NCBI GenBank assembly: GCA_965649215.1
Contig: CBFGJZ010000002.1
Coordinates: 9,150 to 56,333, forward strand
Source of the DNA: a candidate division WOR-3 bacterium
GTDB taxonomy: Bacteria > Hydrothermota > Tepidihabitantia > Tepidihabitantales > CAIPLT01
Reading direction: 5' to 3'
Length of the DNA stretch: 47,184 nt
Within the stretch, counting starts at the first letter, position 1. Every line of letters starts with the position of its first letter. Below are positions 3,001 through 12,000 of the stretch, in pieces. Position numbers: made by a program.

Positions 3001-6000
3001 AAAAGCTGATACTTGGAAATTGCTCGGTATCTTACCAAAGAAACTGAGTTATAAGACCCGTCGTGCTGCTCGTAAACTTGAAGAGGGATTAAAAAATTTA
3101 ATTGCACCATCTATAATTTTTGAAGAGCTTGGCTTTCGTTATTTTGGTCCTTTTGATGGCCACGATTTAGGATTGTTAATAGAGACTTTTAAACGTATTA
3201 AAAATATTAAAGGACCTATTTTAGTGCATGTCGTAACCAAAAAAGGTAAAGGATACCTACCCGCAGAAGAAAATCCTGAATTATATCATGGTATATCGCC
3301 AATAGTGAAGCCCAATAACGGTGTAAATAGTCTCAATGGGATTTCTTGTCAAAACAACCGCAATTGCAGCGATATTTTTGGTGAGACATTGATTGCTTTG
3401 GCTGAAAAAGATCAACGGGTCTGCGCAATATCTGCAGGAATGTGTTTAGGAACAGGCCTTGCCGTTTTTAAGAAAAAATTTCCTGATCGATTTTTTGATG
3501 TTGGTATTTGCGAGCAACACGCGGTGACATTTGCCGCAGGTTTAGCAATGAGTGGCTTAAGACCATTTGTCGCAATCTACTCAACTTTTTTAGCACGGGC
3601 ATATGATCAAATCATTCAGGATGTTGCCTTACAAAATCTACCCGTCGTTTTTGCGATCGATCGAGCAGGGATTGTTGGCGAAGATGGACCGACTCATCAT
3701 GGTAACTTTGATATTTCTTACTTACGAATAATTCCGAATATGATAATTGCGGCACCAAAAGATAATGACGAACTAACCAATATGCTCAAATTAAGCATTC
3801 ATAGCAACGCTCCATTTGCGATTCGCTATCCCCGGGGTTCGCTTACAAATATTAATTATCCCAATCAAGATAATTCGTTGCAAATTGGATGTAGCGAGAT
3901 ATTATTAGAACATCACAATCCCAATAATAAAAAAAGAGGAAAATTGATTGTTTTGGCAGTCGGTTCAATGGTTGCCAATAGTTATCAAGCAGTACGAGAC
4001 ATTATAAGTAATGCAAACTACCCGAATCAATCAATTGTTTTGGTTAATATACGATTTATAAAACCATTAGATGAAAATTTATTACATAATTTAATAGCCA
4101 ATGACGATATTGTTATTACGGTTGAAGAAAATGCAATTAAAGGTGGTTTTGGTTCATCTGTTATGGAGTTTTTAGCAGATAAGGCGATTACTCCGAAAAA
4201 ACATATTATGATTGGTTTAGTTGATAAGTTCATTGAACAGGGTAGTCGGGAAATTTTACTTGACCGATATGGACTTTCAAAGGTAAAATTACAGCAAACA
4301 ATATGGGCTGCATTAAGTCAAGAATAATGAAGGGTATTTATAAATTAATTTTTTGTTTTATTAGCATATCATCTTTTACAATACCTGTTTTTGCTCAAAA
4401 CAGTTTCTTGTCATATAATGATTCATTATTTCTGGATTCTTTAGATATAAATTCATCTAACGAAGTCGACAGTATCCTTCCTTTATTATACTTAAGACAA
4501 AACCAATATCCATTCTTTATTGATCGTTTACAAATCAAGGAGCGGATTGACTATGAAAACGGGTTTGTTTTTTATGAAATCTATCAAAATGGTGTTTATA
4601 GTGGTATATTGGAAATCGTTCCCTTAAGTGATTACTTCAAGCGGACAATATACAAAGAACTATTAACAAAAAGTAAAGAACAAAGCCAAAGAAAAGCAGT
4701 TACCTCATCCCAACCGTTTGACCGGATGGGGTTAATTCCTGATATCGAATTACCAAGAGTACCTCTTTTAGGAGAAGGTAGTCGGATTAATATTTCAGGG
4801 CAAGATAAAATTACTTTTGGTGGTCGTCAAACTTTTACCGAAGGATTTACTCAAACAACCACTCCACCGAGAATGTTTCCTGAATTAAAAATGGATCAAC
4901 AATTGAAAGTGAAATTGGATGGTACAATTGGAGAACGTACTAAAGTCCTAATTGATCATGATTCAGAAAGGGATTTAGCAGGTCGTAACACAGTTAAACT
5001 TTCATACACAGGTACTGAAGATGATATATTACAAAATTTAGAATTTGGAGATACTCGTTTAATAATTCCTAGTACCGCTTATACAGGTGATTTACCTTCT
5101 CGTAAAGGTCTCTTCGGTGTTTCCAGTAAAGCAAAGATAGGAGGTGTTGATTTATATGCAATTGCTTCTCGTGAAGAATCGCAGGGTGAGACTAAAGAGT
5201 TCCGTGGTCAGACCCGCTTAATTTATGATACGATATACGATGTTGAATTTTTAAGAAGGATCTTTTTTTCAATTGGCGAACCGCCTTCGGCGCGAGTGAC
5301 CGATTTAAAGGTATATGTTAAAGATGGAAGTGTAATGGGTGAGTCAGCGATTGCCACTGTATTATTAAATGCTCCTAATGATACACCTCCATATCGTTAT
5401 GACCGAGAAATCGGTTTCTTTTCTTTACGAACCCGTAATCAAGATTATGTTTTTCACGAAGATGGCAATGTAATTGAATTTATTAGAAATATTCCTGCTA
5501 ATACGCATGCAGTTGCAGTCAGTTATGTTGTTGGAAATGACACGGTAGGGGGTCTTAAAGTACTTCAAGGTGATACTAACTTAGTATTAAAGTTAATCAA
5601 ACCAAGTCGTGAGGATACACTTTCCGCATGTTGGCAATATGAATTAAAAAATGTCTATTCACTTGGTAATCGGGATGTACGGATTGAAGACATTAAAATT
5701 TTAAGATATGAGCAAGGTATCGATCCCACCAATTATAAAGAATATGAAACTGATGGTCCAACGGCAGGAAGAACATTCTTAAAATTGCTTGGATTAGATC
5801 CTGATAATAACGGAAAAGTTGAATGGCCCCAATTTGATGCTTCTCGCGGTTATTTAATCTTTCCCTTTGCAAGGCCTTTTGCAATTGAATCACTATCCAT
5901 CCAAAATCGTATTATCTATTATAAAAATTATCCATCCGTCATTGAAGATAAAAAATATTTAATTGTATTGAGCTATATTACATCACGCGGAACTTTTAAT

Positions 6001-9000: not shown

Positions 9001-12000
9001 GTTATGAATAGTCTTGCTAATATCTTGCAAGAAGTGAGTTTTTCTTATACCCGTGATTACTCTCGCCAATACCAGACGGTCTCAAAGCGGCCACCATTTT
9101 TATTCCGACTTGGGTTAAATGATGCATTTATTTTAGATACGATAAATTATCCTGAACGTCCACAGATTAATCGTAATAGATCCGACGATTTATCAATATC
9201 AAGTGGAGCCCGTCTCAAAGATATTTCTATAAATGGTCGGTTTGCCAAGAGTTGGGATAGGCAGTTCTTTACTTATGATGTGAATGGTCTTTATGCGACT
9301 ACCTGGCCAGATATCAATGTCAGTATTGGTCGCATTGAAAAATTATTGTTAGGTTTAGCCACAAGTTCTGATATTTCATTTGGATATAAGCAAGAAAACC
9401 GCCAATCTGGTACAATCATCCACGATACTTTTCGTCTTGATGGTTTGAGAAGAACTACTAATATCAATTATTCGCCGTTAGTTTCTTGGCGGACAACTTG
9501 GAAGAAAAGACTTTCTACTAATTTATCAACAAACTTCTCTAAGTCTAAAGAAGAGATACGATTAAGTCAAGGGTCGAACATTATCGAAACCAATCAACAA
9601 GGTGCAAACCTGTCAGTATCCTATGCTTTTTCAGCACCCCAAGGGATACCACTGCCATTCTTAAAAGGTATCAAATTATCATCGGATTTAAATCTCTCGT
9701 TAAATCTGCGATATAATAAAAACTACACCTTGAATATTCCTTATCTTGCTGATACGACCTATTTACGAAATGATCAAAATTTGGGTACGGATTTAGCAGC
9801 TTCTTATCGGATTTCAAATAGCATTGAATCAGGTGTCACAACTGGTTATTCTAATTATACTGATTTACAACGGGGGCGGAAGACAAGAAATGTTGATTTA
9901 AATTTCTGGGTTCTATTTAAATTTTAAGAGTTTGAATTGTAGTAACAGCTTATGAATGCTAAAGAAAAAACAGTAGTAATTTTTTTAATTGTGAGTTTAC
10001 TGATTGGCAGTTGTATTTCGTTATGGAAAAATTATCAACTTAAAAAAGATTATCAAAAATTAAGCGTGTCAGCGGTATATGAAGCAAAAGAAGAAGCAAT
10101 AAGCTCTGAGACGACATTACCAAAATCAAACAATTTAACTCTAACCGACTTAATTAATATTAACACCGCATCAAAATCAGAATTAGAACAATTAGTTGGC
10201 ATTGGACCAGTGTTAGCCCAGCGCATTATTGACTATCGTAATGAACATAATGGTTTTAAAACTAAAGAAGAGATAATGAAAGTTTCGGGTATTGGTGTAA
10301 AGAAATTTGCCGCCATTAAAGATAAAATTATTATTCATTAATATATGAGTAAGTTAAGATTATTAACAAATCAAATTTAATGATAAATTGTTTTTAGAGA
10401 GTGATGCTTTATGAATAAACATATTTTTAGAGAATATGATATTCGTGGTATTGCTGATGTTGATTTAACCAATGATGTTGTCGTGGCAATTGGTAAGGGT
10501 TATGGAACTTATGTCCAAAATCTGGGTATCAAAGAGTTGCTAATTGGTCGTGATGTGCGATTATCAGGCGAACGGATTCGACAGGCATTAATTGATGGTA
10601 TTTTAAGTACTGGTTGTGATGTGATTGATTTAGGTATTGTGCCAACACCGGTTTTTTATTTCTCGGCTTTTCATTACGATAAGAACGCAGGCATGATGAT
10701 TACGGGTAGTCACAATCCCAAAGAGTTCAATGGTTTTAAGATCGGACTTAATAAAACAACAATTTATGGACAAGAGATTCAGAAACTACGCGAGTTAATC
10801 GAAAGCGAAGATTTTAAGAGTGGGCATGGTAAATTGTCTTACTTAAATCCGATTCCCGCTTATATTGCCATGATTCTTGAAAAAGTTAAGATTAAAAGTG
10901 GTCTGAAAGTTGTTTTTGACCCTGGGAACGGCACGGCCGGCTTTGTGATTGAAGAATTGTTTAATAAAATGGGCATTGAGCCGGTCTTTATCAATTTAGA
11001 GCCCGACGGTAATTTTCCTAATCATCTACCTGACCCAACGATTCCTGAATATATGCAGGATTTAAAGAGTTTAGTTGTGGAATTACATGCTAATTTGGGT
11101 ATTGGTTATGATGGTGATGCTGATCGAATTGGAGCAATTGATGATGATGGCGAGATTGTTTGGGGTGATAAGCTTTTAGCGATATTTGCTCAAGATATTA
11201 TCAAACGTAAAGGCAATGCGAAAATTGTCTTTGAAGTGAAATGTTCGCAAGGACTGATTGAATATATCAAATCAATCGGTGGCACGCCAATAATGTGGAA
11301 AACGGGTCATTCTTTAATTAAGGCAAAGATGAAAGAAGAGAATGCTAGTCTTGCTGGTGAGATGTCCGGACATATGTTTTTTAGCGATGATTATTATGGT
11401 TTTGATGATGCGATTTATGCATCCGCACGTCTTTTGAAAATTGTCTCTGAAGCCGACCAGAGTCTTGCTCAAATGGTTGAGCAAATTCCGTTTTATTACT
11501 CAACTCCCGAGATTCGCATTGAGTGTCCGGATGAATTAAAATTTGAAGTCACGAAGGTAATTCGTGAGCATTTTCAAAAGAATTATGAAATTATTGATAT
11601 TGATGGGGTACGAGTGATTTTCAGTGATGGATGGGGGTTAGTGCGAGCATCAAACACACAGCCAGTTTTGGTCTTACGCTTTGAAGCCAAGAGTGAAACG
11701 AGATTACAAGAGATTCAACAGATGTTTTATGAGCAATTAGCAAAGTTTCCGAATGTAAAAATTGCTCAATGTAATTATTAATATGGGTAAGACAAGTTGT
11801 GAATTATTCATAAAGTATCTGATGTGAAAAAGGCACCTCAATTACAATTACAGAAAGAAATTAATCCATCTTTGTCCCGCATAAGTAAAATTGCTCATCT
11901 TTTTTTACGCAAAGCCATTTCTAAACATCAACTTGTAGATGATAAAGAGAAAGTTTTAATTGCTGTTTCTGGCGGTATTGATAGTTTGGTGCTTACCCAT

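Follow-up and report, generated by a model that had tools for sequence, protein, structure and literature searches.

A type IX secretion-like outer-membrane module and abundant sorting-domain proteins, with no detectable GldK, GldL, GldM or GldN, in a candidate division WOR-3 bacterium

Introduction

The canonical type IX secretion system (T9SS) of Flavobacterium johnsoniae and Porphyromonas gingivalis is composed of SprA (Sov), PorV, PorU, PorZ and PorQ together with GldK, GldL, GldM and GldN (or PorK, PorL, PorM and PorN). This system has been defined in reviews (PMC10202324, PMC4793230), and passages of one of them treat the GldLM motor and the GldKN ring as core subcomplexes (PMC10202324). 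A related proposal concerns Fibrobacter succinogenes S85, a bacterium outside Bacteroidota for which T9SS-dependent display of cellulases has been put forward. Its envelope enzymes carry C-terminal sorting domains (CTDs) of the TIGR04183 type, and by mass spectrometry the mature proteins are without this domain, in that the peptides observed do not reach the CTD, which is consistent with cleavage (PMC6851124). The machinery is left undescribed in that paper, which names SprA, GldK, GldL, GldM and PorU zero times (PMC6851124).

Here we describe a genome of candidate division WOR-3 that appears to encode the outer-membrane half of such a system and a large set of cargo proteins.

An outer-membrane module with numerous predicted cargo proteins

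The window examined is a stretch of 47,184 nucleotides from this 1.64 Mb genome, whose assembly comprises 39 contigs and is 95.1% complete; positions given without a contig name count along the window. The sprA gene occupies 4303..9927 on the forward strand (C2:13452-19076), its longest ORF coding for 1874 amino acids. A previous survey of the genome had called this ORF a clear SprA translocon, and a profile search repeated the match to TIGR04189 at 439 bits (cut-off 200), with a further match to PF14349 at 67.2 bits. The ORF also matches the solved SprA chains 6h3i_A and 6h3j_A of F. johnsoniae (E values of 2e-31 and 8e-32, respectively). On the strength of these matches we assign it as a predicted SprA/Sov-type outer-membrane translocon, a protein whose barrel has 36 strands in the canonical system. 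The likely start codon is the ATG at 4327, which yields a product of 1866 amino acids with a predicted Sec signal peptide ending at the junction VFA-QNS. A homologue with 96% identity is also 1866 amino acids long, whereas the F. johnsoniae protein has 2403 residues, making the WOR-3 protein about 500-540 residues shorter.

Directly upstream of sprA is dxs, coding for DXP synthase (2414..4327, forward strand; TIGR00204, 761 bits), which is preceded by a polyprenyl synthase gene (1559-2389) and by folD (580-1485). The stop codon of dxs and the likely ATG of sprA share one base within the sequence TAATG at 4325-4329, suggesting that sprA is co-transcribed with all three genes. Nine of 21 loci from the phylum show this same arrangement of folD, prenyl synthase, dxs and sprA. 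Directly downstream, a gene on the forward strand (9952..10341) encodes a ComEA-like helix-hairpin-helix protein of 129 amino acids (HHH_3, 74.4 bits; TIGR00426, 63.5 bits). This protein is a conserved neighbor of sprA, which it adjoins in 14 of the 21 phylum loci (the window counted), and among the 71 loci of other phyla a member of its family lies beside sprA in 11.

Additional components are encoded elsewhere in the genome. The survey's finding of a full-length PorU-like protein holds: the putative C25 sortase encoded at C12:12198-16136 covers positions 6-1094 of the 1095 in NF033707, and despite this near-full coverage its 409.8 bits fall about 10 bits below the curated cut-off of 420. The same protein scores 192.8 bits for Peptidase_C25 (cut-off 23) and carries a CTD of its own. 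The one PorV/PorQ-like protein listed previously (C18:25007-25801; NF033709, 67.6 bits) was seen again, but the family had been under-called, as a six-frame search with NF033709 revealed five further ORFs above the 90-bit cut-off (204, 202, 178, 123 and 122 bits). One of these five, the product of C2:101346-102395, aligns with solved PorV (chain 6h3i_F) at an E value of 2e-7. Because NF033709 also rings in Bacteroides thetaiotaomicron, this family model is not specific to the T9SS. A weak PorZ-like candidate at C15:24001-26073 is represented by three collinear matches (40.7, 24.5 and 47.4 bits; cut-off 260). The best match to the PorW/SprE model, a TPR lipoprotein at C8:17905-19374 (66.9 bits; cut-off 250), is most simply attributed to its TPR repeats, given that 12 of 14 control genomes also yield a hit in this search.

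The cargo predicted for this module is extensive. Searching the genome with TIGR04183 gave 92 matches at E<=0.01, 82 of them above the curated cut-off, and a local HMM built with jackhmmer placed the sorting domain on 91 of 1512 ORFs, or 14.6% of coded residues, so that the number of CTD proteins is about 82-92 depending on the model and threshold. These values agree with the 91 of 1442 ORFs and 14.8% of residues reported in the survey, the larger ORF total here being the product of a cruder gene caller. A signal-peptide-like N-terminus is present on 74 of the 91 proteins, and nine of the 17 that fail this search lie at contig ends. One predicted cargo protein, of 621 amino acids, is encoded within the window on the forward strand (42485..44350) and matches TIGR04183 over residues 542-616 with 35.8 bits (cut-off 23) and PF18962 with 41.4 bits.

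The WOR-3 genome and the canonical T9SS have in common a SprA that matches solved SprA, a PorV family with one member matching solved PorV, a candidate PorU-type C25 sortase bearing its own CTD, and type A CTDs on cargo predicted to be exported by Sec. They differ in that no PorW/SprE is identifiable in the WOR-3 genome, in that this genome is far richer per megabase in PorV-family paralogues and in CTD proteins, with 92 CTD matches in 1.64 Mb (E<=0.01) compared to seven in a 3.6 Mb Galbibacter genome (E<=1e-4), and in that GldK, GldL, GldM and GldN are missing from the WOR-3 genome by every sequence method used.

Motor and ring components are not detectable in the WOR-3 genome

The survey had likewise reported no detectable GldK, GldL, GldM or GldN, and curated HMMs, HMMs of our own and hhsearch all came back blank. 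TIGR03513, TIGR03517 and PF19841 have no match in the genome at E<=10, and PF22827 has none at E<=1. In this set, PF19841, PF03781 and our own HMMs take the place of the TIGR03523 and TIGR03525 models used in the survey. Our own HMMs for the four proteins were built from 21 gldKLMN operons, all from the phylum of Galbibacter; run with hmmsearch --max against 11975 six-frame ORFs, they reached best E values of only 0.98 (K), 0.61 (L), 0.46 (M) and 0.73 (N). With hhsearch against the 1512 ORFs, the best probability for GldK was 38%, confined to a lipobox stretch of 24 columns, and those for GldL (6.2%), GldM (7.3%) and GldN all fell within 6-7.5%, whereas 16 of 16 left-out control sequences were recovered at 98.7% or better. 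We conclude that homologues of GldK, GldL, GldM and GldN are not detectable at the sequence level in this genome.

A positive control, which the survey had lacked, is provided by the phylum of Galbibacter. GldM was found in 38 of 151 genomes of this phylum, GldL_N rings in all four GldM-positive genomes tested, and GldK scores 613 bits in the control genome G001. A K-L-M operon is present in each of the 21 GldM-positive genomes that were fetched, with gldN included in 20 of them. We know of no GldLM homologue outside this phylum by which the models could be calibrated. Orthologues of gldKLMN are reportedly present in Rhodothermus and Salinibacter, and if their class is among the GldM-negative genomes of the phylum, then the sensitivity of the models may be overestimated here. 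In genomes other than that of WOR-3, moreover, the prefilter of the multi-genome searches may miss very weak relatives.

SprA commonly occurs without a detectable motor and ring

The combination observed in the window's genome is typical of its phylum. Among 151 genomes sampled, 146 encode SprA, as do 121 of the 122 that are of high quality; GldL_N was found in none of the 151, and neither was GldN above its cut-off, a search that the survey had conducted in a single genome.

The same pattern extends to other phyla. We assembled a panel of 44 SprA-encoding genomes bearing about a dozen phylum labels, which is a biased sample because its members were chosen by likeness to the WOR-3 SprA. In 43 of the 44, GldM and GldL_N are missing and no GldK exceeds the cut-off; GldM and GldK above cut-off each occur in one of 44 genomes, and GldL_N above cut-off in one of 45. 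A PorU match at E<=1e-20 is present in 43 of the 44 (36 above cut-off), and all 43 GldM-negative genomes hold both SprA and PorU-like matches. Type A CTDs are encoded by each of the 23 GldM-negative genomes tested, with 16 to at least 150 per genome. The four Fibrobacteraceae in the panel, which do not include strain S85, conform to this pattern, having SprA and a PorU-like protein but no GldM, no GldL_N and no GldK above cut-off.

Even in the phylum of Galbibacter, 82 of the 120 SprA-positive genomes (among 151) are without GldM, and GldL_N was found in none of 37 such SprA-positive, GldM-negative genomes. Thus the absence that had been framed as a feature of the WOR-3 lineage does hold across the sampled genomes of its phylum, but that framing was too narrow. 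Outside a single GldM-positive section of Bacteroidota, this reduced set of components is what lineages with SprA commonly have. The distribution points to the motor and ring as a probable addition peculiar to one lineage.

A possible motor-free route and its alternatives

The survey had left two explanations side by side, namely components diverged beyond recognition or an export route that lacks the motor and ring, and the tests favor the second. We assign a probability of roughly 60% to the reading that the WOR-3 genome encodes a T9SS variant confined to the outer membrane, operating with neither the canonical motor nor the canonical ring. Sec would carry the cargo over the inner membrane, after which SprA would recognize the CTD and the protein would traverse the SprA barrel. 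A PorV-family shuttle would receive the cargo where the barrel opens laterally, and PorU would then cut off the CTD, leaving the protein to be anchored or released. Capture, cleavage, anchoring and extracellular folding would give the process its direction, rather than a dedicated GldLM rotary motor and a GldKN ring. Published data on F. succinogenes, whose mature enzymes are without the CTD, support the view that a system of this kind can function. On the other hand, the canonical system, that of Flavobacterium included, is described in passages of a review as requiring both proton-motive force and GldLM (PMC10202324), and so a motor-free SprA has no experimental precedent.

Energy might instead be supplied by a borrowed motor, with the proton-motive force acting through ExbB-ExbD-TonB or TolQ-TolR-TolA on SprA, on a PorV-family barrel or on an associated receptor-like barrel. 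The WOR-3 genome has exactly two MotA/ExbB-family genes, and these belong to the two 5:2-type motors encoded, ExbB-ExbD-ExbD-TonB and TolQRA, which are its only members of this motor class. The ExbB-ExbD-ExbD-TonB cluster (C2:88402-90575) is followed directly, on the same strand, by genes for two CTD proteins, a lipoprotein, a TonB-dependent-receptor-like barrel, a CTD protein of 1014 amino acids and a PorV-family barrel. This adjacency makes a borrowed motor possible, and at C33:4462-12312 genes for a lipoprotein, a receptor, a CTD protein and PorV again lie together in a paralogous cluster. Review passages also note structural homology of GldLM with ExbBD, TolQR and MotAB (PMC10202324). Exb and Tol genes, however, are not conserved neighbors of sprA across the 21 phylum loci or the 71 loci of other phyla, and the neighboring receptor-like barrel by itself accounts for TonB. 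Nearly all diderm bacteria have ExbBD-TonB and Tol-Pal, whose presence is accounted for by their normal roles in receptor-mediated uptake and in maintaining envelope integrity. For these reasons we consider a borrowed motor unlikely.

Another alternative is that GldL, GldM and GldN homologues are present but beyond the reach of sequence profiles, making the WOR-3 system a canonical motor-driven T9SS in disguise. Drift of this kind is conceivable for GldL and GldN, which are small proteins, the GldL_N transmembrane model spanning just 62 positions and GldN being periplasmic, and all of our own profiles derive from one phylum. The genome also encodes several membrane or secreted proteins that belong to no Pfam family, for example those at C20:18818-20797, C16:9345-10535, C30:15368-16759 and C25:7304-8539, the first of which has solely unnamed look-alikes in the ESM Atlas. 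Against this reading, each of the 30 nearest Atlas clusters of Galbibacter GldL carries GldL_N, with Bacteroidota the commonest phylum among them. No gene pair with the topology of GldL and GldM was found in the surroundings of sprA, of porU or of the PorV genes, and the topology candidates examined proved to be others: PilMNO with a secretin, LapAB, PgsBCA, glycosyltransferases with a flippase, and LemA, which was identified by reading the sequence. GldK has the FGE-sulfatase fold and is the most easily recognized of the four partners. The WOR-3 genome has no PF03781/FGE-sulfatase domain at E<=0.01, which argues against a GldK that has merely diverged. Similarly, GldK is missing from three of five SprA-positive, GldM-negative genomes in the phylum of Galbibacter, and the other two show nothing beyond generic FGE hits, none of them above 82 bits. 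A disguised canonical system consequently strikes us as doubtful, and quite improbable overall.

It is far less likely that the SprA homologue has another task and that CTD proteins exit by a different route or remain in the periplasm. The reduced length of the WOR-3 SprA would be compatible with this view. Against it stand the co-occurrence of SprA and PorU in every GldM-negative panel genome, the CTDs in all of those tested, and the large share of the coding capacity of a small genome that bears the sorting signal. Finally, the incompleteness and fragmentation of the assembly could in principle hide gldKLMN in the unassembled 5% of the genome, but with SprA so widespread and GldL_N and GldN so uniformly absent across the phylum, we give this explanation almost no weight.

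Implications for secretion in uncultured lineages

Beyond the motor-free variant that we favor for WOR-3, a broader and more tentative scenario can be considered. SprA, PorV, PorU and type A CTDs could constitute an old, self-sufficient outer-membrane system for secretion and anchoring throughout the radiation related to Fibrobacterota, Chlorobiota and Bacteroidota, one that needs no dedicated proton-driven motor. GldKLMN would have been added later in one branch of Bacteroidota, perhaps with gliding, and the textbook T9SS would be the derived form. We view this history as possible, but the odds are somewhat against it.

Several reviews present the T9SS as a system confined to Bacteroidota (PMC7463736, PMC11611037, PMC5445135), which contrasts with the near-ubiquity of SprA in a sampled phylum that lies outside this group. 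About one seventh of the coded residues in the WOR-3 genome belong to proteins with the sorting signal, and yet four proteins regarded as 'core' are missing, both here and in genomes carrying about a dozen other phylum labels. If the machinery works, then the energy need of SprA-mediated transport becomes a directly testable question, as does the evolutionary order of translocon and motor. Likewise, predictions that require gldKLMN, such as the TXSScan model (PMC4793230), would overlook a major pathway by which many uncultured lineages export proteins.

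The sprA gene and its neighborhood

According to the survey's finding, this WOR-3 genome encodes the outer-membrane module of a type IX secretion system (T9SS) and proteins bearing a type A C-terminal sorting domain (CTD), with GldK, GldL, GldM and GldN undetectable. The sprA gene lies in a single open frame of 1874 amino acids (window 4303-9927, forward strand) that scores 439 bits against TIGR04189, the curated SprA/Sov model (cut-off 200), and 67.2 bits against Pfam SprA_N, and that matches the solved F. johnsoniae SprA chains 6h3i_A (E 2e-31) and 6h3j_A (E 8e-32). The start is likely to be the second ATG, at position 4327, which would give a protein of 1866 amino acids. 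A 96%-identical homolog has this same length, the dxs stop codon TAA shares one base with this ATG (window 4325-4329), and the N-terminus read from it (window 4327-4420) is a classic signal peptide ending at VFA/QNS. The residue that follows the signal peptide is glutamine, a pattern that passages of PMC5837995 describe as typical of Bacteroidetes. The closest named relatives of this SprA are labeled candidate division WOR-3, and remoter ones, at 25-30% identity, are labeled Fermentibacteria, Zixibacteria and Krumholzibacteria.

On the same strand, sprA is preceded by folD, a polyprenyl synthase gene and dxs, and is followed by a ComEA-like helix-hairpin-helix gene whose product has 129 amino acids (window 9952-10341). 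A scan for promoters and terminators across window 1-13500 gave 71 and 9 matches, against 57.8 ± 6.8 and 8.1 ± 3.1 in shuffled sequence, which is close to chance. Among 21 sprA loci of the phylum, ComEA flanks sprA in 14 and the folD, prenyl synthase and dxs genes do so in nine. Among 71 loci of other phyla, the flanking genes include LptF/LptG (33 loci), MurB (17), an M28 peptidase (17) and ComEA (11); LptF and LptG are LPS-export permease genes. No motor-like gene is found among the conserved neighbors in either set of loci.

Elsewhere in the window, all on the reverse strand, adjacent genes for TamB-like (1159 amino acids) and Omp85/BamA-TamA-like (579 amino acids) proteins, an outer-membrane assembly pair, occupy 22832-28050. 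A four-gene cluster resembles a soluble NiFe hydrogenase (28171-32141), with large, small, FAD/NAD-binding and 4Fe-4S subunits. Three further frames of 271, 947 and 233 amino acids (34682-39625) match no Pfam family at E<=1e-5.

Putative sortase, shuttle and cargo proteins

The source genome (1.64 Mb in 39 contigs, 95.1% complete) encodes a PorU-like protein at C12:12198-16136 that matches positions 6-1094 of the 1095 in the PorU sortase model, scoring 409.8 bits against a cut-off of 420. It includes a Peptidase_C25 domain (192.8 bits), a C25 propeptide and a sorting domain of its own. We had guessed that additional C25 paralogs might reside beside PorV genes, and a jackhmmer search with the PorU C25 domain returned PorU alone.

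The PorV/PorQ-like protein reported at C18:25007-25801 proved to be a real match, if a weak one (67.6 bits), and a six-frame search detects five members of the family above the 90-bit cut-off and three weaker ones besides. The five are found at C33:11359-12300 (204 bits), C2:101448-102392 (202 bits), C25:10363-11178 (178 bits), C14:6524-7354 (123 bits) and C38:5818-6666 (122 bits), of which the C2 copy shows similarity to 6h3i_F, a PorV chain of known structure (E 2e-7). Two proteins far larger than the ComEA-like neighbor of sprA, each with a ComEA-type N-terminal HHH_3 domain, are encoded beside PorV/PorQ-family genes at C18:29840-32260 (806 amino acids) and C35:173-1996 (607 amino acids), one of them sharing its operon with genes for a 5'-nucleotidase and a PHP-type hydrolase that bears a CTD. 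Three collinear weak matches suggest that C15:24001-26073 encodes a PorZ-like protein. The top PorW/SprE match is a TPR lipoprotein, and this search is uninformative because it also matches 12 of 14 control genomes.

Potential cargo is abundant. Our jackhmmer search of C-terminal segments assigned a CTD to 91 of 1512 crude ORFs, or 14.6% of residues, and TIGR04183 yielded 92 matches at E<=0.01, 82 of them above the curated cut-off. By one and the same crude test, a signal-peptide-like N-terminus is present in 74 of the 91 CTD ORFs versus 419 of 1182 other ORFs; nine of the 17 CTD ORFs that fail are truncated by contig ends.

Candidate energy sources

A secretion route of this kind might run on a borrowed Exb/Tol energizer, an alternative that we regard as unlikely, if the strongest of those considered. 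The genome carries two MotA/ExbB-family genes. The first is part of a TolQ-TolR-TolA cluster that also includes YbgF and Pal (C26:14712-17801), the second of an ExbB-ExbD-ExbD-TonB cluster (C2:88402-90575). Directly after the latter are two CTD genes, a lipoprotein gene, a TonB-dependent-receptor-like barrel, a CTD protein of 1014 amino acids and a PorV-family barrel, the whole stretch including the Exb genes spanning C2:88402-102395. A paralogous four-gene set is located at C33:4462-12312, and the order common to both is lipoprotein, TonB-dependent-receptor-like barrel, CTD protein of about 1000 amino acids without a Pfam family, and PorV-family barrel.

Searches for GldK, GldL, GldM and GldN

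Another explanation is that GldL, GldM and GldN are present and have diverged past recognition. In the source genome, no match was found at E<=10 for GldL (TIGR03513), GldM (TIGR03517) or GldN (PF19841), at E<=1 for GldL_N (PF22827), or at E<=0.01 for the FGE-sulfatase domain that represents the GldK fold (PF03781), which matches three of 14 control genomes. Because genome profile searches, the sole search mode for all other genomes, score only those candidates that survive a first filter, we made an independent HMM test. Models were built from 21 gldKLMN operons, namely 20 loci of GldM-positive genomes and that of Galbibacter, with K, L and M present in all 21 and N in 20. Six-frame translation of the genome yields 11975 ORFs with a minimum length of 40 amino acids, and hmmsearch --max runs of these models over the full set gave best E values of 0.98 for K, 0.61 for L, 0.46 for M and 0.73 for N.

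Comparison of the operon profiles with the 1512 ORFs by hhsearch, for which a copy of the a3m index, read for entry names only, stood in for the cs219 index, gave top probabilities of 6.2% (L), 7.3% (M) and 7.5% (N); the 38% obtained for GldK reflects only a 24-column lipobox stretch. In a leave-out control with the four most divergent operons, 16 of 16 proteins were recovered at 98.7-100%. We know of no GldLM homolog outside Galbibacter's phylum that could serve as a cross-phylum control. At the level of sequence, GldKLMN appear to be absent from this genome, and we consider extreme divergence somewhat less probable than a borrowed energizer.

Topology yielded no better candidates. Genes at C7:57123-63282 with a topology like that of GldL/GldM turned out to be glycosyltransferases and a flippase, and the remaining pairs of this topology are LemA (read from sequence), PilMNO together with a secretin and a prepilin peptidase, LapAB, and PgsBCA. 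A type IV pilus/T2SS-like cluster (C1:32581-38357), read from topology and sequence as PilM/N/O-like proteins, a 535 amino acid protein and a prepilin-peptidase-like protein with eight helices, was also noted, as was a separate secretin gene (C9:36888-38243; PF00263, 142 bits). None of the 20 bitopic or secreted proteins scanned against Pfam is GldM-like; the families seen were M23, S41, PpiD-like, secretin, TPR and BamB-like, and the others had none. ESM Atlas look-ups returned only GldL_N clusters, most often from Bacteroidota, for Galbibacter GldL, and only unnamed clusters for C20:18818-20797, a protein of no known family.

Distribution among SprA-encoding genomes

The main new result is that the GldKLM gap extends outside the phylum. 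A scan based on a SprA alignment located 77 loci in other lineages, and we searched 44 of those genomes, a panel biased toward SprA types near that of the source genome. Their record titles name Galbibacter, Bacteroidota/Bacteroidetes, Ignavibacteria, Tepidiaquacella, Kapaibacterium, Chlorobiota, Chlorobiaceae, Fibrobacteraceae, Gemmatimonadota, Zixiibacteriota, Latescibacterota, Aegiribacteria, Fermentibacteraceae, Krumholzibacteria, Eisenbacteria, KSB1 and Caldithrix, with six unlabeled. GldM was found in Galbibacter alone (1/44; 448 bits), and GldL_N exceeded its cut-off in one of 45 genomes, the source genome included. GldK did so in one of 44, with 29 matched at E<=1e-5; outside Galbibacter the matches reach no more than 109 bits and reflect the generic FGE domain, and in nine such loci inspected in other phyla no GldL/M/N-like genes come after the FGE-domain gene.

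All but one of the 44 genomes match NF033707, the curated PorU model, at E<=1e-20 (43/44), 36 of them above the cut-off, the top score being 994 bits; the sole miss is Galbibacter, the one GldKLMN-positive genome of the panel. Type A CTDs (E<=1e-4) number from 16 to at least 150 per genome in 23 GldM-negative panel genomes, and seven in Galbibacter. With PorU matches and CTD proteins found alongside SprA in these genomes, it is very improbable that SprA serves some unrelated role.

An even sample of 151 genomes from Galbibacter's phylum, chosen without regard to SprA likeness, includes 120 with SprA and 38 with GldM (37 above the cut-off). Every one of the 38 also has SprA, so that 82 genomes have SprA and no GldM. 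GldL_N matched three GldM-positive controls and none of 37 SprA-positive, GldM-negative genomes, and in five genomes of the latter kind GldK (E<=1e-10) was missing from three and generic in two. Matches recur with a period of four along the genome list, from which we infer class-level strata in the sample. The gldKLMN genes reportedly occur in Rhodothermus and Salinibacter.

Within the source organism's own phylum, SprA is present in 146 of 151 sampled genomes, among them 121 of the 122 that are of high quality, and in 75 of 76 genera. The loss of GldKLMN in an assembly gap is a negligible prospect, because GldL_N and above-cut-off GldN are both missing from all 151 of these genomes (GldN gave one 15.6-bit match).

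A proposed outer-membrane-only T9SS

Passages of PMC10202324 name PorLM/GldLM, PorKN/GldKN and Sov/SprA as the three core T9SS subcomplexes and describe CTD proteins as confined to Bacteroidota. Those of Abby et al. (2016, PMC4793230) report complete systems solely in Bacteroidetes, where 60 of the 97 genomes have one. Excerpts of PMC5837995 suggest, from BLAST, a possible T9SS in Chlorobi, Fibrobacteres and Ignavibacteriae, and portions of PMC6851124 state that mature Fibrobacter enzymes have lost the CTD, naming no machinery genes. Our literature search revealed no description of SprA, PorU and PorV without GldKLMN, with the proviso that incomplete systems may appear in PMC4793230, Tables S3 to S5, and no paper that includes both WOR-3 and T9SS.

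The best-supported reading, to which we assign a probability of roughly 0.6, is an outer-membrane-only variant of the T9SS. By homology to the studied system, cargo would be exported over the inner membrane by Sec, would pass through SprA and would be handed to a PorV-family shuttle, after which PorU would remove the CTD and either anchor or release the protein. The GldLM motor and the GldKN ring would have no part in this process. The ComEA and HHH_3 neighbors may hint at a connection of this route with the scavenging of extracellular DNA.
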